Below, piece by piece: positions 14,491 to 45,586 of a stretch of DNA of 64,000 bases. Position 1 is the stretch's first letter; the number at the start of each line of letters is the position of its first letter. This DNA is from Escherichia coli (GTDB lineage: Bacteria; Pseudomonadota; Gammaproteobacteria; Enterobacterales; Enterobacteriaceae). Made by a program: the position numbers and the translations under genes. Location: the NCBI RefSeq assembly GCF_050920415.1, contig NZ_CP169309.1; one strand, given 5' to 3'. The notes under the pieces were generated by a model. The model was not told where the DNA came from. It was given only the letters and a program-made list of their open reading frames with translations, and searched no databases.

Positions 14491-15639
14491 TTACACGTGA
14501 GCAACGGGTTTCGGCGTATGACCGGCGTTGCGAAGCAGCATCAGCAAATAGATAAATGATACGCTGGCGATCATGATAAACAATAAATTATCGGAGAAAT
14601 TCTGCATTAGCATGGCAGTAAATGACGGACCAAGCAGGCTTCCCACAGTATAGCTCAACAGTAAGGCCTGGTTCATCGCCACCAGTTGATGATGTTCAAC
14701 TTTCTCGCAAGCCCATGCCATCGCCACCGGATATAGCGTAAAGCCAGCGGCACCGAGGATGAATAAAGCCGGGGCCATCGCCGCCTGGCTAAGCATCGCG
14801 ATACTGCCGAGAATGACGACAAAGACCTGAACACGCAACACCAGCAGTCGACCAAACTTATCCGCCAGACGTCCAATCGGCCATTGTCCAAGGATACCCG
14901 CACTGACCAGGACCGCCATCCAGAAACCAATGCTGGCATTGCTCACCCCTTTGTGATTGAGGTACAGCGGCATCAGGCCATATAGAGATCCCAGAACGAT
15001 TCCTGAGATAATGCAGCCATTCACGCCAAGCCGCGCCTGACGGAGTTTTAGCATTGACGTAATTGACGTCGAATCATGGTTTTCAGCCTGCTGATTCAGC
15101 ACACGCGTAAACAACAGCGGTAAGATCCCTGCCAACGTCAAACCTGTAACCCACGGCAATACGGACATCAGCTCGGTTGAAACTTTGCTGACCAGTAACT
15201 GGCCTAAAAACGTTCCCACGTAATAAACCATCATATACGCAGCAAGCAAACGACCACGGTTACGTGACGTCCCACTGCACATCAGCGCGCTCTCAACGAC
15301 CACCCAAATCATGGCACAGCCGACACCCGCTACAAAACGCCACGCCAACCAGCTCCAGAAACCAATCATCAGGCCAAGACCTGCACAGCCAGCGGCAAAA
15401 ATGAAGGAGGCCAGATAATAGCTGCGGTTAAAGCCAATGCGCTTAATGACATACCCTGTCAGCAATGTACCGACCAGGTTGCCGGTAAAATAGGATGAGC
15501 TGACAACGCCTACCTGCCATGTGGACATATGTTCCTGGGCGAGCCAAAGCGGCACGAGCGTATTTAACACTGCGATCGCCAAAGTCAACAAAAGCAGGCC
15601 AGACAGCAAAAGCATGACAGGCCGGGTATACGTGGACAT
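14491..15639 (-). CDS. ycaD: MFS transporter YcaD
   Basis: 382-aa hydrophobic ORF in the conserved position. Confidence 0.88.
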
Positions 15640-15953
15640 GAATTAAAACCGTGAGGAAGTTCAAATTTCATGCGCATCATGCCACCGCCAAAAACATTGT
15701 CAATGGGTGAAAATACGCGCATATCGCAGCTGAGGTATTATCGATTTATATTACTCATTCATAACGCTAATGCTGGAGAGACGATTAATCTCATCTGATT
15801 GTTTTTATTGATCTAACACAAATTTCATACGCTTCGTTCAGTCGAAAAATTTCATGGTCACAGCAAACTCATATTTCCCGTCTATGCTTTCAGAGCAATG
15901 CATCGCGTCTGACCGATTTCAGACGTACCGCTGACTCTCGAAAGGAGAAGAGG

Positions 15954-16580
15954 ATGACCAAACCGTATGTTCGTCTCGATAAAAATGATGCTGCCGTTTT
16001 GCTTGTTGATCACCAGGCTGGTTTACTTTCCCTTGTACGGGATATCGAACCCGATAAGTTTAAAAATAACGTGCTGGCGCTGGGTGATCTGGCTAAGTAT
16101 TTCAACTTATCTACTATTCTTACCACCAGTTTTGAAACCGGTCCTAACGGCCCATTAGTTCCAGAACTGAAAGCACAGTTCCCCGATGCACCTTACATTG
16201 CTCGCCCGGGAAATATTAACGCCTGGGATAACGAAGATTTTGTGAAAGCGGTAAAAGCGACAGGTAAAAAACAATTGATTATCGCTGGTGTGGTAACCGA
16301 AGTTTGCGTTGCGTTCCCGGCACTTTCGGCAATTGAAGAAGGGTTTGATGTCTTTGTCGTGACTGACGCGTCAGGGACCTTTAATGAAATTACCCGGCAT
16401 TCGGCGTGGGATCGAATGTCGCAAGCGGGTGCGCAATTGATGACATGGTTCGGCGTGGCGTGCGAGCTGCATCGCGACTGGCGTAATGATATTGAAGGAC
16501 TGGCGACGTTGTTCTCTAACCATATTCCTGATTATCGTAATTTGATGACCAGTTATGACACGTTAACGAAGCAGAAATAA
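15954..16580 (+). CDS. ycaC: isochorismatase-family hydrolase YcaC
   Basis: 208-aa ORF starting MTKPYVRLDKNDAAVLLVDHQAGL. Confidence 0.9.
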   Translation: MTKPYVRLDKNDAAVLLVDHQAGLLSLVRDIEPDKFKNNVLALGDLAKYFNLSTILTTSFETGPNGPLVPELKAQFPDAPYIARPGNINAWDNEDFVKAVKATGKKQLIIAGVVTEVCVAFPALSAIEEGFDVFVVTDASGTFNEITRHSAWDRMSQAGAQLMTWFGVACELHRDWRNDIEGLATLFSNHIPDYRNLMTSYDTLTKQK

Positions 16581-16615
16581 AAGAGAACCGGGGCCGAAAC
16601 CCCGGTTGTTACTCA

Positions 16616-17479
16616 TTAACTTGCGACGGCCATCCCCACGGTCATATGCAAACCATAGAATACGCCACGACCGATTAATTCCCCTGCCAGAAGCAGAATG
16701 AATGATACAGAAAGTAGCGGAACTGCAGGCTGATAACCTTTTAGCTGTGGGGCAATCCACAAGCACAGGGCAACAGCCAAAAGTACGATACGCCAGGACA
16801 TCAGCGCACCATAGTCCGGCACCAGCGCTGCAGCCTGCTGCACAGAGCTATGAATAGTCGCCAGCTCTGCGCCCTGCATCACTGACACCACGCCACTCAC
16901 TACCAGGGCCAGTACAGAAATAGCTGGCAGCAGACGCATCGCCCAGCCATCGACGCCAGCCAGACTCAGTAACAGGTAACCCAGTAACGGGCCGCCCATG
17001 AACATCGTCAGGAAGAAGCCCATCGGTGTCCAGATGCTGTACCAGGTGGGTACGGTATCGATGCTGTTATAAACGCGCACCATCATCCAGACAAAGACTA
17101 CGCCAAGAACCATCGTCACCACCAGCCACAGCGTACGCAGTGCTGGCGACAGCTTTTTCAGTATTGCCAGCACCCAACCGATGCCACCAACGGCAAAAAA
17201 GATCGAACCGCTGGCGATTTCGTTACTGAGTGCTGAAGCCCCTACCCGGTTGAGCGAGTTAAAAGCGCGCATCGGCGAACCAAGATGGAGCATAGAGGCG
17301 ATAAAGCCAATACCCATCAGCACCCATAAGCCAAACATACAGGCAATAACACGCTGCTGGGCTTCTGCTCGCAGGTCGCCTTTGAGCAGCGCCAAAGCCA
17401 GAACGATAAAACCACCTGCTACACATTGCCCGAAGACCGTGAAGATCATCAGCGGCCATTCATGCCATCCACTTCCCAT
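16616..17479 (-). CDS. dmsC: DMSO reductase membrane anchor subunit
   Basis: ATG at 17477-17479 gives MGSGWHEWPLMIFTVFGQCVAGGF; hydrophobic. Confidence 0.9.
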   Translation of the reverse strand: MGSGWHEWPLMIFTVFGQCVAGGFIVLALALLKGDLRAEAQQRVIACMFGLWVLMGIGFIASMLHLGSPMRAFNSLNRVGASALSNEIASGSIFFAVGGIGWVLAILKKLSPALRTLWLVVTMVLGVVFVWMMVRVYNSIDTVPTWYSIWTPMGFFLTMFMGGPLLGYLLLSLAGVDGWAMRLLPAISVLALVVSGVVSVMQGAELATIHSSVQQAAALVPDYGALMSWRIVLLAVALCLWIAPQLKGYQPAVPLLSVSFILLLAGELIGRGVFYGLHMTVGMAVAS

Positions 17480-17480
17480 C

Positions 17481-18098
17481 TCACACCTCCTTCGGGTTTG
17501 CCAGATAGCCAGTGGTATCCCCGGTCGGGCGGCTGTTGGCATTGGGTTTGATCACAATATTCGGTTTGGTAAAGTGAGCTCGCGGCAACGGCGCAACAGC
17601 CGCCAAATCGCCATGTTTTTTACGCAGCTCGTCGATAGGGCCGAAATCCAGCGCCCGCAGCGGGCAGGATTCTACGCAGATCGGTTTTTTCCCCTCCGCA
17701 ACACGGTCATAACAACCATCGCATTTGGTCATATGGCCTTTCGTTTCGTTATATTGCGGTGCGCCGTACGGGCAAGCCATATGGCAGTAACGGCAGCCAA
17801 TGCATACATCTTCATCGACCACAACAAAACCATCTTCACGTTTATGCATCGCACCGCTCGGGCAGACTTTAGTACAAGCCGGATCTTCGCAGTGGTTACA
17901 TGAAATCGACAGATAGTAGGCAAACACGTTCTGATGCCAGACACCGTTATCTTCCTGCCAGTCACCGCCAGCATATTCATAAATGCGGCGGAAGCTGACT
18001 TCCGGCGTCAGATCTTTATAGTCTTTACAGGCCAGCTCGCAGGTTTTGCAACCGGTGCAACGGCTGGAATCAATAAAAAATCCATACTGGGTTGTCAT
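17481..18098 (-). CDS. dmsB: DMSO reductase iron-sulfur subunit (4x[4Fe-4S])
   Basis: 205-aa ORF with repeated ferredoxin-type Cys clusters (CTGCKTCELACK, CIGCRYCHMACP). Confidence 0.95.
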   Translation of the reverse strand: MTTQYGFFIDSSRCTGCKTCELACKDYKDLTPEVSFRRIYEYAGGDWQEDNGVWHQNVFAYYLSISCNHCEDPACTKVCPSGAMHKREDGFVVVDEDVCIGCRYCHMACPYGAPQYNETKGHMTKCDGCYDRVAEGKKPICVESCPLRALDFGPIDELRKKHGDLAAVAPLPRAHFTKPNIVIKPNANSRPTGDTTGYLANPKEV

Positions 18099-18108
18099 CG
18101 GTTACTCC

Positions 18109-20553
18109 TTACACCTTTTCAACCTGAACCAGGTTTGTATGTGACGGATTCCCCTTAGCGAGAGGAGACGGACGTTGAGTGGTCAGTACGTTAATACAAC
18201 CGCCCTTATCGACACGTTTTGCATCCGGGTCATACCAGGCACCTTCACCCAGTGCGACCACACCCGGCATCATTCGTGGCGTCACTTTTGCCTCAATGTG
18301 AACCTCACCACGGTCGTTAAAGATCCTGACCTTATCGCCGTTGTTGATACCGCGTTTTTGTGCATCAAGCGGGTTGATCCACATTTCCTGACGGCAAGCT
18401 GCTTTCAGCACATCAACGTTGCCGTAAGTTGAGTGAACGCGAGATTTGTAGTGGAAGCCAGTAAGCTGCAGCGGATATTGTTTGTTCAGCGGATCCTGAT
18501 AACTTTCAAAGCCCGGCGTGTAGATCGGCAGTGGATCGATCACGTCGCCTTCTGGCAATTCCCAGGTCGCGGCAATGTCAGCAAGCGCCTGCGAATAAAT
18601 CTCAATTTTACCCGATGGCGTGGTCAGTGGATTTGCCTGCGGATCTTCACGGAAGGCTTTATAAGCAACGTGATGCCCTTGTGGGTCGCGCTTTTTAAAG
18701 ATCCCCTGCTTGCGGAACTCTTCAAACGTTGGCAGTTCAGGAATCGCTTCCCGCGACTGGGCATACAGATGCCGCATCCACTCTTCCTGGGTACGGCCTT
18801 CGGTGAACTGCTGCTCGACGCCAAGACGTTTTGCCAGTTCACTGGTCATCTCATAGATGGTCTTACATTCAAAGCGCGGTTTAATCACCTGGTCGTTGAA
18901 AATCACATAAGACATATTCCCGCAGGATGCATCCAGCGCAAAGTCCATCTGTTCGGAAGCAGTGCAGTCAGGCAGCAGGATGTCAGCATATTTCGCCGAT
19001 GAGGTCATGTGGCAGTCGATAACCACAATCAGCTCGCACTTCTTATCATCCTGGAGGATTTCATGAGTACGGTTGATTTCAGAATGCTGGTTAATCAGGC
19101 AGTTACCGGCATAGTTCCAGATCATTTTGATCGGCACATCAAGCTTATCTTTCCCGCGCACCCCATCACGCAGCGCTGTCATTTCCGGGCCACGTTCAAT
19201 GGCATCGGTCCACATAAACATCGAAATGCTGGTCTGGATCGGGTTTTCGAGGGTCGGCATACGGACAAAAGGTAAGCTGTATGAACCTTCACGCGCGCCG
19301 CTGTTGCCCCCGTTAATACCAACGTTACCGGTCAGAATCGCCAGCATTGAGATAGCACGGGTTGCGATTTCACCGTTAGCGTGACGCTGCGGCCCCCATC
19401 CCTGACTGATAAACGCGGGTTTAGTACTGCCGATCTCACGTGCCAGTTTGACGATTTTGTCTGCCGGAACACCGGTAATTTGCGAGGCCCATTCCGGTGT
19501 TTTGGCCACGCCATCTGGCCCTTCCCCCAGAATATAAGCTTTATAGTGACCATTTTTCGGTGCACTGGCTGGCAGGGTTTTCTCGTCGTAGCCAACGCAA
19601 TATTTATCGAGGAATTCCTGATCAACCAGATTTTCGCTGATCATGACGTACGCCAGACCATTAACCAGTGCGGCATCTGTTCCCGGACGAATGGGGATCC
19701 ACTCATCTTCACGCCCTGCACCGGTGTCGGTATAGCGCGGATCGATAATGATCATACGAGCGTTGGATTTCTGACGAGCCTGCTCAAGGTAATAAGTCAC
19801 CCCACCACCGCTCATTCGCGTTTCGCCAGGGTTATTACCAAACAGTACCACCAGCTTACTGTTTTCAATATCTGACGGGCTATTACCATCCGCCCAGCCG
19901 CCGTAGGTATAGTTCAAACCTTCCGCAATTTGCGCGGAAGAGTAGTCACCGTAATGGTTCAGATAACCGCCGCAGCAGTTCATCAGGCGAGCGACCAGGG
20001 TATTTCCCGGCGGCCAGGAGCGGGTCATGGTGCCGCCCAGCGTACCGGTACCATAGTTCAGATAGATAGACTCGTTGCCGTACTCTTTGATCAGACGCTG
20101 CATGTTCGTGGCGATAATGTCGTAGGCTTCTTCCCAGCTAATGCGCTCGAATTTGCCTTCGCCGCGCGCCCCAACTCGTTTCATCGGATATTTCAGGCGG
20201 TCAGGGTTATAAACGCGGCGACGCATGGAACGCCCACGCAGGCAGGCGCGTACCTGGTGCAGCCCGTCGTAATTATCATCGCCGGTATTGTCTGTTTCGA
20301 CATATTTGATTTCACCGTCCACTACGTGCATACGTAGCGGGCAGCGGCTACCACAGTTAACTGTACAGGCGCTCCAGATAACCTTTTCGTCTGACTTTGC
20401 CGGAAGGGCACTATCAACAGCGTGCGCAATCCGACTAAAAGGTAAGGTTAATGCGCTGCTGGCCATTGCCAGGCCGCCGATCGCTGTCGTTTTTACCAAA
20501 CCACGGCGACTCACCTCAGCAGCCAATACCGCATCAGGGATTTTCGTTTTCAT
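18109..20553 (-). CDS. dmsA: DMSO reductase molybdopterin catalytic subunit, Tat-exported
   Basis: 814-aa ORF; twin-arginine signal (SRRGLVKTTAIGGLAMA). Confidence 0.95.
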   Translation of the reverse strand: MKTKIPDAVLAAEVSRRGLVKTTAIGGLAMASSALTLPFSRIAHAVDSALPAKSDEKVIWSACTVNCGSRCPLRMHVVDGEIKYVETDNTGDDNYDGLHQVRACLRGRSMRRRVYNPDRLKYPMKRVGARGEGKFERISWEEAYDIIATNMQRLIKEYGNESIYLNYGTGTLGGTMTRSWPPGNTLVARLMNCCGGYLNHYGDYSSAQIAEGLNYTYGGWADGNSPSDIENSKLVVLFGNNPGETRMSGGGVTYYLEQARQKSNARMIIIDPRYTDTGAGREDEWIPIRPGTDAALVNGLAYVMISENLVDQEFLDKYCVGYDEKTLPASAPKNGHYKAYILGEGPDGVAKTPEWASQITGVPADKIVKLAREIGSTKPAFISQGWGPQRHANGEIATRAISMLAILTGNVGINGGNSGAREGSYSLPFVRMPTLENPIQTSISMFMWTDAIERGPEMTALRDGVRGKDKLDVPIKMIWNYAGNCLINQHSEINRTHEILQDDKKCELIVVIDCHMTSSAKYADILLPDCTASEQMDFALDASCGNMSYVIFNDQVIKPRFECKTIYEMTSELAKRLGVEQQFTEGRTQEEWMRHLYAQSREAIPELPTFEEFRKQGIFKKRDPQGHHVAYKAFREDPQANPLTTPSGKIEIYSQALADIAATWELPEGDVIDPLPIYTPGFESYQDPLNKQYPLQLTGFHYKSRVHSTYGNVDVLKAACRQEMWINPLDAQKRGINNGDKVRIFNDRGEVHIEAKVTPRMMPGVVALGEGAWYDPDAKRVDKGGCINVLTTQRPSPLAKGNPSHTNLVQVEKV

Positions 20554-38400: not shown

Positions 38401-38721
38401 TCAGGCTTTTTCTAGCGTACACAGCAATGGATGCTCATTCTCCCTCGCGTACTTGTTCACCATCGCCACTTTGGTTTCTGCAACCTCGGCGGTAAAGACT
38501 CCGCAAATGGCCTTCCCCTGGTAGTGAACAGCGAGCATCAATTGCGTTGCACGTTCTACATCATAAGAAAAGAATTTTTGTAACACGTCAATAACAAACT
38601 CCATCGGAGTGTAATCATCATTGACTAATATCACTTTATACATAGATGGCGGTTTTAGCGCGTCGCGAACTTTTTCTTCCGCCAGTTGATCAAAGTCCAG
38701 CCAGTCGTTCGTTTTACCCAT
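38401..38721 (-). CDS. clpS: ClpS adaptor (N-end rule)
   Basis: 106-aa [46 protein letters not shown]. Confidence 0.97.
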
Positions 38722-39043
38722 TGTCAGTTATCATCTTCGGTTACGGTTATCGGCAGAACGCCCTGCCGCTGACAAGAGCTTATTTGCCTGACCAATCTAC
38801 TCCACATGATAGATAACTATCATCTATCGTTGGCATCAGCGACATCTGTCACATTCCTGTCAATAGCGTTAACTGCTTCAAATTTTTGATTCATACCTGC
38901 CCCCTGGCCCCTGTCAAATGCTTGACGGCTCGCCCTAATTCTCTAAATTGTATTTCTAGAGTTGGCGAGGTTTTGAACAGCCCCCTCTCTGACCCCGGTT
39001 TATTCCATCTTACTTGTATAAGATTTGCGAAGGATGTCGAAGC

Positions 39044-42513: not shown

Positions 42514-43506
42514 ATGGTGAAATCGACGTTATGTATAACCATTGATTTCATGAATATGTCGCAGCTAACTGAACGGACCTTTACGCCATCTGACTCTCTC
42601 AGCAGCCTGTCACTTTTTCTTAGTCTGGCACGTGGACAGTGTCGGCCGGGTAAATTTTGGCATCGCCGTAGTTTTCGCCAGAAATTTTTGCTGCGCTCGT
42701 TGATTATGCCGCGTTTAAGCGTTGAGTGGATGAACGAACTTTCCCACTGGCCTAATCTCCATGTGTTGTTAACGCGCCAGCCGCGACTGCCTGTGCGTCT
42801 GCATCGCCCTTACCTTGCGGCGAATCTTAGCCGCAAGCAATTGCTGGAGGCGTTACGTTACCATTATGCATTGCTCCGTGCCTGCATGTCGGCAGAAGAA
42901 TTCAGCTTATATTTGAATACTCCCGGGCTGCAACTGGCGAAGCTGGAAGGCAAAAACGGCGAGCAGTTCACGCTTGAGCTGACCATGATGATCTCAATGG
43001 ATAAAGAAGGTGACAGCACAATCCTGTTCCGCAACTGCGAAGGTATTCCTCTGGCAGAGATCACCTTTACTCTGTGTGAATACCAGGGGAAAAGAACAAT
43101 GTTTATTGGCGGGCTGCAAGGTGCGAAATGGGAAATTCCACATCAGGAAATCCAGAATGCGACGAAAGCCTGCCACGGGCTATTTCCCAAACGTCTCGTG
43201 ATGGAAGCGGCCTGTCTGTTTGCCCAACGTTTGCAGGTAGAGCAGATCATTGCCGTCAGCAATGAAACGCATATTTACCGCAGCCTGCGTTATCGCGATA
43301 AAGAAGGCAAGATCCATGCAGATTACAACGCTTTCTGGGAGTCGGTTGGCGGCGTATGTGATGCTGAACGCCATTACCGCCTTCCGGCACAGATAGCACG
43401 AAAAGAGATTGCCGAAATCGCCAGTAAAAAACGGGCTGAATACCGTCGGCGCTATGAGATGCTCGACGCTATTCAGCCACAAATGGCCACGATGTTTCGC
43501 GGTTAA
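42514..43506 (+). CDS. ybjX: VirK/DUF535-family protein YbjX (alternative ATG at 42553)
   Basis: 330-aa ORF divergent from macA, the conserved position of ybjX. Confidence 0.8.
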   Translation: MVKSTLCITIDFMNMSQLTERTFTPSDSLSSLSLFLSLARGQCRPGKFWHRRSFRQKFLLRSLIMPRLSVEWMNELSHWPNLHVLLTRQPRLPVRLHRPYLAANLSRKQLLEALRYHYALLRACMSAEEFSLYLNTPGLQLAKLEGKNGEQFTLELTMMISMDKEGDSTILFRNCEGIPLAEITFTLCEYQGKRTMFIGGLQGAKWEIPHQEIQNATKACHGLFPKRLVMEAACLFAQRLQVEQIIAVSNETHIYRSLRYRDKEGKIHADYNAFWESVGGVCDAERHYRLPAQIARKEIAEIASKKRAEYRRRYEMLDAIQPQMATMFRG

Positions 43507-45161
43507 TCCGCGCGACCGCGCGCCAGCCACAGCACGCGTGAGAACATTTTTTTCAGCAGCGTCGGTACGGAGTCCACACCACGACGGCCGGCCTCCATTG
43601 CCACTTCAATGGCAAGATCGGGTTTGGAAGAGCGATGGATCGCTTTCGAGATAATTTTACGCAGATTCATCGGCACATTTTCCGGGATCTGCGCCACGCG
43701 GTGGAACACATCGGAAAATCCCTGGCGATACATAAAATGTTCCATATCCAGCGCCGGTAACGCCGTTAAATGTTCTCGTTCGGCTTCCCGATCGTTATTC
43801 AACAGGCTGCGTACCGTAGCGGCATACTTCTTCCCGGCTTCATCGCCATCGACCAGCACATGCCATTCAATCCCCATTCGACGGGCGAATTTAACCAGTG
43901 GCTTTAGCCCGGACTGGGCAAACTCAATGACCTTGATCCCTTCGGCATCAAAATGATGTCCACACTGACGCGCCAGTTCATTGATAACCCAGGTTTCCGT
44001 TTCGCCTTCCACCAGCAGCCAGCAGCGAGCAAACAGCGATGACGGACGATTAAAACGAATGTGGAAAGAGATGCGTCGGCTATCTTCGGTACTCAAGCCA
44101 CTCGGCCCCAGACGCCAGGCGGCAACGCGAGAGGACTCACGTACCAGTCGGCAAACATGCTCTACCGGCGTTAACGAAAGCAACTCACCCGAGTTGGTGG
44201 TGGCAATGCGCTGCAATGGCAGAAGATTCAACAGATGCCAGGCAACTGAAAGCATAATAGGGTGTAAACGCGTTTCTGGATCTTCAATCAGCAATAATGG
44301 ACGTGCGTCTTTATCGAGCCGCAATGTGCCTTTTGCCTGCAATAAAGTAGCAAACAGGCCGAGCAAAATAACCCGATACGAGCGCCCTCCAGGCCGGTCA
44401 ATCATCCGGTTGATGATATCCAGATAGCGCCAGCTTCGTTGCTCATTGCTGGCTCGCCGCCGCATTAAACGATATCGCGCCTGTCCGGCCCCCTGCTCAG
44501 AGAAATAATGCTCAAGCAGTTGCACCATTGCGGAAAGTCCCTGACGAATCTGCCCATCAGAGAGATTTTGCGGATGTGAGGATAACTCACGGGCGAGGAA
44601 ATCGAGCTGGCGCGCGGTGACTTCCACATTAGGGACATTTGGCACCGTGCCGTTACGAATACGGCGCATAAAGCGGGCATCACGCAAGCGCAGCACCGGC
44701 ATTAAACGCACCAGATGGCGTGCCTGATCGTTAATATCCTCGACATCAATCGGATGTCCGTCTTTATCGAGAAAACTGCGGAGTGTCATCACGCTGCCGT
44801 CTTCCGCACTCTCCCCTTCCAGACGATAAAAAATACGGTGATAGCCATCGGTGCATGGCGTCCAGCACGCTTCCAGCGGCCGATAGCGGCGAACCCGATG
44901 TCGGCCTGGCAGAGATTCGCGGAAGGTCAAAATAATATGCAGATGATGTTCTCGCCCGTTGATATCTCCCGGCGGGAACCAGAAATCGTCGCGCTCAAAA
45001 TGGTAGAGATCTGATTCTGGCGATAGCAGCAGAGTTAAGGCGTCCAGCAAGCTGGATTTACCCCACGCGTTCTCCCCAATCAGGACGTTGTTTTGTTCCA
45101 GCATCAACGACAAACGGTTGATACCGCGAAAACCCACAATTTCAACGCGCTCAAGAATCAT
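43503..45161 (-). CDS. ybjD: OLD-family (AAA ATPase plus TOPRIM) putative nuclease YbjD
   Basis: 552-aa ORF starting MILERVEIVGFRGINRLSLMLEQNNVLIGENAWGKSSLLDAL. Confidence 0.85.
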   Translation of the reverse strand: MILERVEIVGFRGINRLSLMLEQNNVLIGENAWGKSSLLDALTLLLSPESDLYHFERDDFWFPPGDINGREHHLHIILTFRESLPGRHRVRRYRPLEACWTPCTDGYHRIFYRLEGESAEDGSVMTLRSFLDKDGHPIDVEDINDQARHLVRLMPVLRLRDARFMRRIRNGTVPNVPNVEVTARQLDFLARELSSHPQNLSDGQIRQGLSAMVQLLEHYFSEQGAGQARYRLMRRRASNEQRSWRYLDIINRMIDRPGGRSYRVILLGLFATLLQAKGTLRLDKDARPLLLIEDPETRLHPIMLSVAWHLLNLLPLQRIATTNSGELLSLTPVEHVCRLVRESSRVAAWRLGPSGLSTEDSRRISFHIRFNRPSSLFARCWLLVEGETETWVINELARQCGHHFDAEGIKVIEFAQSGLKPLVKFARRMGIEWHVLVDGDEAGKKYAATVRSLLNNDREAEREHLTALPALDMEHFMYRQGFSDVFHRVAQIPENVPMNLRKIISKAIHRSSKPDLAIEVAMEAGRRGVDSVPTLLKKMFSRVLWLARGRAD

Positions 45162-45586
45162 ATCCCCTCCAGAAATATGTGACTTATCCTTTACGCTGGC
45201 AGTATAACGGGAAAGGCCTTGCTAATACGTGATGACATCACATTTAAGCATGGCAAATGTCTGAAAAATGAGCGAATAATCGCGTTATACTCCCTCTTGC
45301 TGATAAGTCTGCAAAAACAACAAAATCAAATAATTAGCATGATAAATTATTTTTTATTACGCCTAAAGGATTAAATCTTTTGCTTGCACTACACTGTCAA
45401 TCAGACAAATGACTATATGGGGCAACCCGCTGTTGCCCTAAATCAAATTTACTGGATTTATTTATCTGGTGAATGACTCGCCTTCGTTTTTAAAATAGCC
45501 GCGCATTATTTCCGTCGTCACTTTTTTACGACGACCCTATAAAACGACCATATTTTTCACAGGGTCAATTTTTAATTGAGGTGGAT

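Follow-up and report, generated by a model that had tools for sequence, protein, structure and literature searches.

ybjD of Escherichia coli: a stand-alone OLD-family core gene with a plausible native role beyond classical phage defence

Is the OLD-family protein encoded by ybjD of Escherichia coli a dedicated anti-phage protein, or does it have another native function? We approached this question from a 64,000-nucleotide stretch of E. coli DNA (hereafter the window; assembly GCF_050920415.1, contig NZ_CP169309.1), for which a preliminary description had pointed to an OLD-family ATPase/TOPRIM protein beside macAB. The open reading frame at 43503-45161 is, with near certainty, E. coli ybjD, and it is intact. 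Published ybjD cloning primers (PMC13261556) match the start and end of the gene, and the flanks, aqpZ and the convergent ybjX, are the same. The features of the locus are as follows.

43503-45161, minus strand: ybjD (proposed name oldB), a coding sequence of 552 aa from the open reading frame list, with an ATG start and a TAA stop at 43503-43505.
42514-43506, plus strand: ybjX, which separates ybjD from macAB.
43503-43506, no strand assigned: TTAA, the 4 bp over which ybjD (minus) and ybjX (plus) overlap at their convergent stop codons.
45162-45210, minus strand: proximal promoter and 5' UTR, with the -10 element TATACT at 45201-45206, a conserved G at -14 and the Shine-Dalgarno sequence GGAGG at 45166-45170.

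The preliminary description had both ends of the reading frame exactly right and left the strand unsaid; the plus-strand translation of this interval is crowded with stops, and the frame thus lies on the minus strand. The N-terminus of its translation, MILERVEIVGFRGINRL...GENAWGKSSLLDAL, agrees with that quoted previously. ybjD does not directly adjoin the macAB locus named there, as ybjX lies in between. The annotated neighbours are aqpZ, lysO, ybjX and macAB; aqpZ is oriented divergently from ybjD and ybjX convergently with it, and the ybjD-ybjX pair has been catalogued from RNA-seq as a convergent excludon (PMC12288877). The corresponding regions of E. coli contain, as annotated, housekeeping genes only, in line with the earlier remark that ybjD encodes the only defence-like fold in the window. 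The GC content of the gene is 53.5%, versus 50.2% for the whole window. Of 5426 complete E. coli genomes, 5424 carry an annotated ybjD ('ATP-dependent endonuclease') that matches the gene at 95-100% nucleotide identity. The allele in the window is 100% identical at the nucleotide level to that of only one complete genome and 95-98% identical to the others, and a protein identical to its product is encoded by several E. coli records.

The intergenic region upstream of ybjD measures 419 bp. When this region was aligned across 20 enterobacterial genera, CGcTATACT and GGAGG were the sole conserved blocks, and this conservation supports the assigned start codon. No conserved -35 element or operator was seen in the alignment, and a simple two-hexamer promoter scan, which found nothing, was uninformative. 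SOS control was considered and rejected, as nothing resembling a LexA box was found in the vicinity of the gene. The gene is transcribed in wild type, as measured by RT-qPCR (PMC13261556), and its expression would be driven by this simple conserved promoter.

That YbjD belongs to the OLD family, with an ABC-type ATPase head and a TOPRIM nuclease, is near certain from its sequence. The TOPRIM profile search, which the preliminary description had named as its check, came out positive: Pfam OLD-like_TOPRIM (PF20469) matches residues 376-440 with E=3.8e-16 and 59.8 bits, above the gathering score of 23.2, and DUF2813 (PF11398) matches residues 1-375 with E=2.1e-160. In PADLOC, the strongest models are those of GajA (7e-80), with Old at 2e-24 and an AriA match restricted to the Walker A region (aa 1-51). 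A PDB search with the single YbjD sequence was weak, and a family profile was used instead; it found TsOLD (1e-20), GajA (2e-20), Eco8 OLD and the C-terminal region of Bp OLD. The original naming as an OLD-family ATPase/TOPRIM protein is thus upheld by profile, sequence and structure searches. Both halves expected of an OLD protein are present, namely an N-terminal ABC-type ATPase with Walker A, Walker B, D-loop and H-loop position, and a C-terminal TOPRIM with the invariant Glu and DxD.

By itself, this finding restates published knowledge of an OLD-family gene already tested for phage defence. Schiltz et al. (2019) took YbjD as an OLD query and assigned it to Class 1 (PMC6755086), and the micropublication of Atahualpa et al. 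(2026) renamed the gene oldB (PMC13261556); OLD membership and phage testing were therefore known from these two reports. What we add is the core status of the gene, its synteny and dN/dS, its absence from phages and true plasmids, and the Class 2-like C-terminal region of its product. The domains and motifs on which the comparisons below depend are the following.

44682-45161, minus strand: ABC-ATPase head, N-terminal lobe (aa 1-160), with AAA_15/AAA_21/SMC_N matches on aa 1-50.
45054-45077, minus strand: Walker A, GENAWGKS (aa 29-36), coordinates checked by translation.
44307-44681, minus strand: helical insertion in the ATPase (aa 161-285), from the predicted structure.
44031-44306, minus strand: ABC-ATPase head, C-terminal lobe (aa 286-377), from TsOLD alignment and conservation.
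44259-44297, minus strand: Walker B/D-loop, LLLIEDPETRLHP (aa 289-301).
44187-44204, minus strand: H-loop position, ATTNSG (aa 320-325), where Asn323 replaces His.
43752-44030, minus strand: TOPRIM nuclease core (aa 378-470), from PF20469 and Bp OLD alignment, pLDDT 96-98.
43995-44009, minus strand: E385-G-E-T-E389 of the TOPRIM core.
43842-43850, minus strand: D438-G-D440 of the TOPRIM core.
43506-43751, minus strand: C-terminal four-helix domain (aa 471-552), from the model, pLDDT 96-98.
43740-43748, minus strand: D472-x-E474, putative metal-B ligands.
43623-43625, minus strand: K513, putative catalytic lysine.

Both the ATPase and the nuclease residues are conserved among 115 family representatives at 30-53% identity. 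In Walker A, G29, E30 and G34 are at least 97% conserved in this set, and position 35 is Lys in 101 and Arg in 10 of them; K35 is invariant in all 80 Enterobacterales. TsOLD E276/H283/H310 align with E293/H300/N323 of YbjD. A degenerate ABC-signature region, PGGRSYR (aa 257-263), lies within the helical insertion, and given this degeneracy and the Asn at the H-loop, YbjD may either hydrolyse ATP or only bind it. No other part of the protein evolves as fast as the insertion. It is modelled as long helices (180-195, 202-223, 241-255 and 259-277) plus loops of low confidence (172-178 and 224-241); by analogy with TsOLD and GajA (PMC10568477), it is likely a dimerisation domain. At the nuclease site, E385/E389 align with E400/E404 and D438/D440 with D455/D457 of Bp OLD (6nk8), and these four residues are invariant or nearly so in the 115 representatives and invariant in 80/80 Enterobacterales. 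D472, E474 and K513 are also invariant and are located where T506/E508/K562 of Bp OLD would be expected; they would provide a second metal site (D472 and E474) and a catalytic lysine (K513).

Regarding its place among the OLD classes, YbjD is Class 1 by context, while a resemblance to Class 2 (GajA/Bp OLD) is seen in its catalytic C-terminal region. First, as in Class 1, ybjD is a single gene without a conserved partner. The 'variable neighbourhood, often mobile' ascribed to that class (PMC12796447) does not describe it, however, as its neighbourhood is fixed across Enterobacterales. Nor does the protein follow TsOLD (PDB 6P74), which has no C-terminal helical domain, whereas the YbjD model has a four-helix domain there with an invariant Lys; since Class 1 is heterogeneous, lack of this domain is not required of every member. 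P2 Old, also of Class 1, requires RecBC inhibition and its own ATPase and nuclease residues, whereas YbjD acts independently of RecBC and its phage phenotype dispenses with Toprim (PMC13261556). Second, 164 YbjD residues align to the C-terminal region of the B. pseudomallei protein Bp OLD (PDB 6NK8), our Class 2 reference together with B. cereus GajA (PDB 8U7I/8SM3). The DxD-to-DxE spacing is 30-32 aa in the YbjD family as opposed to 49 in Bp OLD, and judging from this spacing YbjD probably lacks the Insert-3 helix of Class 2. Membership of Class 2/Gabija was rejected, as a GajB/UvrD/PcrA/Rep-like helicase was found neither beside ybjD of E. coli nor beside its counterparts in 80 other Enterobacterales and eight distant contexts. 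Salmonella genomic island 1 carries a gene also called 'ybjD' (S024, beside the uvrD-like S023), which is part of a Gabija-type pair and has the name alone in common. Third, Class 3/retron membership was rejected because no reverse transcriptase is found among the annotated neighbours, and Class 4/PARIS because ATPase and TOPRIM reside in one 552-aa open reading frame, not in separate AriA and AriB genes.

Enterobacterales inherit ybjD vertically as a core gene, and it is not mobile defence-island cargo. The preliminary description had called the gene solitary and its backbone position conserved, and both statements hold across the order. The slot hcr-hcp-lysO, ybjD, cspD-clpS is kept from Escherichia to Yersinia, Serratia, Hafnia and Pectobacterium, and genomes representing 80 species, as well as Yersinia, have ybjD in this slot, whereas the presence of ybjX, macAB and aqpZ varies. 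About 20 of the 80, among them Klebsiella, Raoultella, Superficieibacter and Pectobacteriaceae, lack ybjX but retain ybjD, which speaks against ybjX as a partner and led us to reject it. Neither a helicase nor a reverse transcriptase nor a split TOPRIM/AriB-like partner was found near ybjD in E. coli or in these 80 genomes and Yersinia, nor in eight contexts of distant relatives (Salinivibrio, a Vibrio-like contig and six metagenomic ones), where the relatives are solitary among metabolic genes. Relatives sharing only the C-terminal half (40-45% identity) were considered as true GajA and rejected, given their solitary contexts and the presence of DUF2813. Long relatives of 784-1867 aa were likewise rejected as helicase fusions or eukaryotic proteins, as they have the same core plus large insertions without a Pfam match. 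One long relative was located on a bacterial contig.

Selection on ybjD is at the level of its housekeeping neighbours: its dN/dS, taken out to Klebsiella, is 0.015-0.068, compared with 0.014-0.019 for ClpA, 0.023-0.062 for MacB and 0.065-0.23 for YbjX. Within the gene, dN is lowest in the TOPRIM and in the C-terminal lobe of the ATPase. All 79 full-length orthologues of the Enterobacterales set are intact (550-556 aa) with ten catalytic residues invariant, and within the family the nuclease residues do not vary across Gamma- and Betaproteobacteria, even at 30% identity. Among 50,697 phage records, no orthologue (at least 40% identity, full length) was found; the collection held only relatives at the level of P2 Old and a single 2-kb fragment encoding 98 aa of YbjD, which is probably host DNA. 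By the same definition none was found on true plasmids, and the high-identity 'plasmid' matches are almost all chromosome-sized records, chromids or apparent chromosomal fragments keeping ybjX. A mobile YbjD family was rejected on the outcome of these phage and plasmid searches.

How YbjD behaves towards phages has been reported elsewhere (PMC13261556). A ybjD knockout showed no phenotype against 68 BASEL phages and equalled the wild type. Mild, non-toxic induction from a plasmid restricted two siphoviruses, Bas18 and Bas20, and induction shrank the plaques of five T7-like phages, Bas64-68. The Toprim domain was dispensable for the phage phenotype, the K35A variant kept the phenotype with higher toxicity, and toxicity was RecBC-independent. 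The caution of the preliminary description, which called a defence role speculative, fits these data, in which the knockout is silent and effects appear only on induction. No repair or growth phenotype was found in the available portions of the literature mentioning ybjD. The Keio deletion is reportedly viable and the gene non-essential.

Taking these data together, we lean, by a little, towards YbjD being a stand-alone OLD protein (Class 1 by context) and ATP-gated nuclease, encoded by a vertically inherited core gene, with a native role beyond dedicated defence. The alternative that survives best, possible although doubtful in our view, is dedicated single-gene anti-phage defence (Class 1 OLD 'oldB'), whereby YbjD senses infection and halts the phage, perhaps through ATPase-driven abortive infection. 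Its well-studied bacterial relatives, P2 Old, Vc OLD, GajA, retron Eco8 OLD and PARIS, are all defence proteins, GajA models are its strongest PADLOC matches, and the effects on Bas18/Bas20 and Bas64-68 were obtained at a non-toxic inducer level (PMC13261556). Core status is compatible with defence, as conservation is also seen among some immune genes, and a set of 68 phages is a small sample; the silent knockout would then mean that the right phages or expression conditions were missed. Known defence genes, however, are usually accessory, patchy and island-borne, whereas ybjD is nearly universal in E. coli, keeps one slot order-wide, evolves at housekeeping-level dN/dS and has native GC, and neither phages nor true plasmids carry its family. 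The defence proteins P2 Old and Vibrio cholerae OLD, by contrast, belong to mobile or variable elements. In addition to the silent knockout, it counts against dedicated defence that the phenotype has no need of Toprim, although Toprim is among the most constrained parts of the protein.

An RNA-targeting YbjD, which cleaves tRNA or other RNA and not DNA, is unlikely. The idea draws on P2 Old, which cuts the anticodon arm of tRNA, and on AriB of PARIS, which cuts tRNA, both as reported, as well as on the active site of Bp OLD, which mirrors that of RNase M5 (PMC6755086). P2 Old is, however, only 27.8% identical to YbjD over 189 aa, and YbjD, unlike P2 Old, shows RecBC-independent toxicity (PMC13261556). 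The closest solved structures, GajA, TsOLD and Bp OLD, are moreover DNA nickases or nucleases, as is Vc OLD, which gave no structural match. Finally, that YbjD is a functionless relic whose sticky ATPase domain produces non-specific artefacts on overexpression is highly improbable: it would suit the silent knockout, the dispensability of Toprim and K35 for the sole phenotypes observed (PMC13261556), the degenerate signature motif and the Asn at the H-loop, but it is contradicted by the low dN/dS, the 79 intact orthologues with their invariant catalytic residues and the nuclease residues kept at 30% identity, which are unlike gene decay.

How, then, might YbjD work as a stand-alone OLD protein with a native role of its own? 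Most likely, it would be an ATP-gated, Mg2+-dependent nickase or nuclease, for which we infer the oligomerisation, the gating and the substrate. Its SMC/Rad50-like ABC ATPase head is split by the helical insertion, through which the protein would probably dimerise. ATP bound at the head (K35, E293, H300 and N323) would restrain the oligomer, and loss of this restraint, or a nucleic-acid or protein cue, would release the activity. The higher toxicity of K35A fits ATP binding as a restraint. Nevertheless, a nuclease-centred mechanism does not account for the phage phenotypes, because these need neither Toprim nor K35. Natively, YbjD would more likely survey or maintain the nucleic acids of the cell at a low level than serve as a dedicated defence against phages.

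A precedent is provided by the archaeal Cran1 of Sulfolobales, an order-wide OLD ATPase/nickase with a conserved neighbourhood that apparently does not serve defence (PMC12796447). By its description, it is like YbjD in showing an overexpression phenotype that is ATPase-dependent and nuclease-independent (PMC12796447). Unlike ybjD, which is dispensable in the laboratory, Cran1 is essential and cell-cycle regulated, and it has a helical insertion in its TOPRIM (PMC12796447). We tentatively raise, without expecting every part to hold, the proposal that YbjD is the bacterial counterpart of Cran1, a domesticated, vertically inherited and constitutive housekeeping OLD nuclease of Gamma- and Betaproteobacteria. 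The substrates of its conserved TOPRIM would be nucleic acids of the cell itself, such as aberrant intermediates of replication or recombination, or plasmid and foreign DNA; the anti-phage effects would be by-products of ATPase-domain overexpression, and the catalytic module a GajA-like one without helicase.

Unlike typical anti-phage genes, ybjD is a vertical core gene in one chromosomal slot across Enterobacterales, and it presents a mismatch: the nuclease site is among its most conserved parts, yet the sole known phenotypes are independent of that site. Together with the silence of the deletion against 68 phages, this mismatch points to an undiscovered native function, and a role beyond classical defence is plausible. 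ybjD offers a member of a family usually classed as 'defence' in the best-studied bacterium, with a deletion strain ready. It bears on the question, posed in a 2023 review, of whether stand-alone OLD proteins can defend alone and what else they do (PMC10568477).

The ybjD open reading frame, for which the preliminary description had given the N-terminus MILERVEIVGFRGINRL...GENAWGKSSLLDAL, is found in the ORF list of the window with exactly those ends and that N-terminus, an ATG start and 552 codons. The strand, which had been left unstated, is minus; the plus-strand reading of the same stretch is riddled with stop codons. The gene had also been placed next to macAB. The neighbourhood is the same, but direct adjacency does not hold, as ybjX intervenes. 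Of 5426 complete E. coli genomes, 5424 have an annotated ybjD (‘ATP-dependent endonuclease’) that the window DNA matches at 95–100% identity.

Features of the ybjD locus
42514..43506, plus strand: ybjX, between ybjD and macAB
43503-43506: 4-bp stop-codon overlap (palindromic TTAA) of the convergent ybjD and ybjX
43503..45161, minus strand: ybjD
45162-45580: aqpZ-ybjD divergent intergenic region, 419 bp, AT-rich (37% GC vs 50% in the window)
45166-45170, minus strand: Shine-Dalgarno GGAGG preceding the ATG of ybjD
45201-45206, minus strand: -10 element TATACT preceding the ATG of ybjD

Upstream of ybjD, conservation across 20 genera is limited to the Shine-Dalgarno and the -10 element (CGcTATACT); neither a LexA box nor a conserved operator or -35 was found in this set. 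In Edwardsiella, the nucleoid protein EnrR has one of its top ChIP peaks at the ybjD promoter (PMC9023278), a hint that nucleoid proteins exert control here, and in UPEC ybjD is up ~2.5-fold under a cathelicidin-derived peptide (PMC6737244). At the other end, ybjD and ybjX, whose transcripts overlap, were classed in an RNA-seq survey as a convergent ‘excludon’ (PMC12288877); thus, each gene may interfere with the expression of the other.

That YbjD belongs to the OLD family, as first read from its sequence, is hardly in doubt. In Pfam, DUF2813 covers residues 1–375 (E=2.1e-160) and OLD-like TOPRIM residues 376–440 (E=3.8e-16; 59.8 bits, cut-off 23.2), the latter being the profile match by which the preliminary description proposed to check its reading; partial ABC/SMC-type P-loop matches lie at the N-terminus. 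The NCBIfam scan gave nothing beyond sub-threshold Walker A matches. The top PADLOC models are for the Gabija nuclease GajA (7e-80, 8e-41, 7e-38), followed by Old (2e-24). Against known structures, a family profile of 53 members (28–53% identity) matched Thermus scotoductus OLD (TsOLD, 6P74; 1e-20, aligned 2–442) and GajA (2e-20), and further PtuA, the retron-Eco8 OLD and the C-terminal region of B. pseudomallei OLD (Bp OLD). Confidence in the AlphaFold2 model is high (mean pLDDT 87.8, pTM 0.87; nuclease half 96–98), and Foldseek ranks GajA, TsOLD and Eco8 OLD first.

Residue roles were carried over by alignment from the literature assignments for TsOLD and Bp OLD.

Functional residues of YbjD and their counterparts
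Walker A: TsOLD K34; YbjD K35
Walker B: TsOLD E276; YbjD E293
D-loop: TsOLD H283; YbjD H300
H-loop: TsOLD H310; YbjD N323
Metal A: TsOLD E377, D431, D433; Bp OLD E400, D455, D457; YbjD E385, D438, D440
Metal B: TsOLD D381; Bp OLD E404; YbjD E389

YbjD thus has the ATPase motifs, the TOPRIM Glu and the DxD expected of the OLD family, and its ATPase and nuclease motif residues vary little or not at all across 115 representatives, the 53-sequence alignment and 80/80 Enterobacterales sequences. Asn at the H-loop is a frequent Class 1 variant, and a degenerate ABC signature, seen in E. coli YbjD as PGGRSYR versus the family consensus G-S-G-A-Q-K, is common to all Class 1 OLD homologs (Schiltz 2020). 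D472-x-E474, at the start of the C-terminal helical domain, and K513, inside it, are invariant; because they occupy the same place relative to that domain, we infer that D472/E474/K513 are the counterparts of Bp OLD T506/E508/K562. The second metal site and the lysine are likely present. The protein has a complete ABC head, into which helices are inserted, and a TOPRIM site, probably complete for two metals, with a helical domain.

Its genomic context places YbjD in Class 1, whereas its catalytic module is nearer to that of GajA and Bp OLD (Class 2). The C-terminal helical domain of Class 2 is missing from TsOLD, the structural type of Class 1 (Schiltz 2020). The YbjD model has a confident four-helix domain at 473–547, bearing the invariant lysine, and 164 of the ~185 residues of its C-terminal region superpose on Bp OLD at 2.3 Å, a resemblance that accounts for the strong PADLOC GajA matches spanning 260–549. 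YbjD probably lacks the Insert-3 helix of Class 2, since the DxD-to-DxE spacing is shorter (30–32 aa in the YbjD family vs 49 in Bp OLD and 45 in TsOLD). This hybrid architecture agrees with phylogenies in which Class 2 is nested inside Class 1 (PMC12796447). YbjD shares with Class 1 the solitary state, but not its typical variable or mobile neighbourhood or the TsOLD-type C-terminal region. The contexts defining Gabija, retron OLDs and PARIS are likewise not those of ybjD, which has no GajB, no reverse transcriptase, and no split between ATPase and TOPRIM.

ybjD is a core gene with vertical inheritance. With one genome scanned per GTDB species, at least 501 species proved to have a relative; the best 80 of these are all from Enterobacterales, at 63–99% identity. 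In all of these 80 loci with enough flank, ybjD occupies one slot, between hcr-hcp-lysO(-aqpZ) and (ybjX-macAB-)cspD-clpS, as it does in Yersinia, which bears out the conserved backbone position proposed for it. The gene is kept where its neighbours are missing: ybjX in ~20/80 loci (including Klebsiella, Raoultella, Superficieibacter and Pectobacteriaceae), macAB in Pectobacterium, Brenneria, Mangrovibacter and Hafnia, and aqpZ in several. Full-length orthologues are intact in 79/79 (550–556 aa). The dN/dS of ybjD (0.015 vs E. albertii, 0.032 vs Citrobacter, 0.046–0.068 vs Enterobacter/Klebsiella) is in the range of the neighbouring genes' products ClpA (0.014–0.019), MacB (0.023–0.062) and Hcp (0.025–0.031) and well under YbjX (0.065–0.23), with the lowest dN in the TOPRIM core and the ATPase C-lobe. 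YbjX itself, of the VirK/YbjX family (DUF535), has changed far more quickly than the proteins encoded around it, with 45–60% amino acid identity where YbjD holds 80–90%.

Nor is ybjD mobile. Its GC content is 53.5% (window, 50.2%). A search of 50,697 phage records gave no orthologue (≥40% identity, full length); among true phages, the best match is P2 Old (27.8% over 189 aa). By the same thresholds, plasmid-collection orthologues are almost confined to records of chromosome size, chromids or apparent pieces of chromosome that retain ybjX; other plasmid-borne relatives reach at most ~36% identity, mostly over less than half of YbjD. In one 2,060-bp phage record (OR845570.1, ‘Escherichia phage ECO95 1-6-1’), the N-terminal 98 aa of YbjD are encoded at 91% identity; the likeliest source is host DNA carried into a phage preparation, or a fragment with the wrong label. 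Only one complete genome, NZ_CP169399.1, matches the window's ybjD at 100% of nucleotides; between yljB/cspD and clpS it has a P4-like island (integrase, Icd-like protein, DNA primase; 15523-19659 of its locus, L001), and inside the stretch matching window 1-24000 it has ~1.3 kb extra. The window is without the island (corresponding site ~38721-39014) and the extra segment, and thus comes from a near-identical strain lacking those insertions.

The whole DUF2813 clade is solitary, in line with the original description of ybjD. Its members extend to Vibrio, Salinivibrio, Photobacterium, Aeromonas, Motilimonas and the betaproteobacterium Chitinilyticum. The neighbourhood is unconserved beyond Enterobacterales (a Vibrio-like contig and Salinivibrio differ), and eight further distant contexts show genes for metabolism or transport, with neither a helicase nor a reverse transcriptase nor a separate TOPRIM gene. 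Giant DUF2813/OLD relatives (P0149, P0162, P0166, P0175 and others; loci L005 and L006; 784–1867 aa) retain the YbjD core and have large insertions without a Pfam family match, one site being after ~residue 63 of the ATPase and another in the C-terminal helical domain, in the loop ~493–498; the helix bearing K513 is kept at the extreme C-terminus. One such relative is on a bacterial contig, adjoining an MscK-like channel gene. The name ‘ybjD’ is also borne by ORF S024 of Salmonella genomic island 1, beside the uvrD-like helicase S023 (PMC9035990), which invites annotation confusion; S024/S023 is a Gabija-type pair, and S024 is not orthologous to chromosomal ybjD.

As an OLD-family, phage-tested gene, ybjD is already known. 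E. coli YbjD (b0876) was the query defining the OLD family census of Schiltz et al. 2019, who counted the E. coli gene, single and isolated, in Class 1 (PMC6755086). The window gene is also the one studied by Atahualpa et al., who reported an identical motif alignment and aqpZ/ybjX context, showed transcription in the wild type and proposed the name oldB (PMC13261556). The preliminary interpretation is therefore correct, though not new. Added here are the core and vertical status, selection, non-mobility, solitary clade, hybrid architecture and regulation.

How would YbjD act? By analogy with GajA, TsOLD, Bp OLD and Vibrio cholerae OLD, it would oligomerise via the helical insertion, ATP binding would restrain it, as ATP inhibits GajA, and the TOPRIM site would nick or cleave DNA by two-metal catalysis. 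In the published assays, induction with 0.001% arabinose reduced plating of the siphoviruses Bas18 and Bas20 and gave smaller plaques of the T7-like Bas64-68; the phenotype persisted without the Toprim domain (residues 1–377) and with K35A, which was more toxic, and was lost without the ATPase domain (PMC13261556). Unlike P2 Old, YbjD showed no RecBC dependence (PMC13261556). Since these phenotypes are nuclease-independent, yet the nuclease is what evolution guards most, the native function is probably other than the overexpression effect. We tentatively favour housekeeping or surveillance, acting on nucleic acids of the cell or of foreign origin, a reading which may well fall short of an even chance. 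Dedicated phage defence, with the right phage still to come, seems somewhat less probable: overexpression does affect a few phages, but the Keio deletion behaved as its parent against 68 BASEL phages (PMC13261556), which agrees with the caution of the preliminary description about defence. An RNA or tRNA target is improbable, and a dead relic deserves very little credence. For the favoured surveillance role, the closest functional analogy, likened by description, may be archaeal Cran1, which has order-wide conservation and a conserved neighbourhood, is apparently not a defence gene, and has an overexpression phenotype via its ATPase, not its nuclease (PMC12796447).

The value of ybjD lies in core-gene behaviour and a strongly conserved nuclease site set against a weak, Toprim-independent, overexpression-only defence phenotype, a contrast that opens the native role of a stand-alone OLD to direct testing in E. 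coli K-12.
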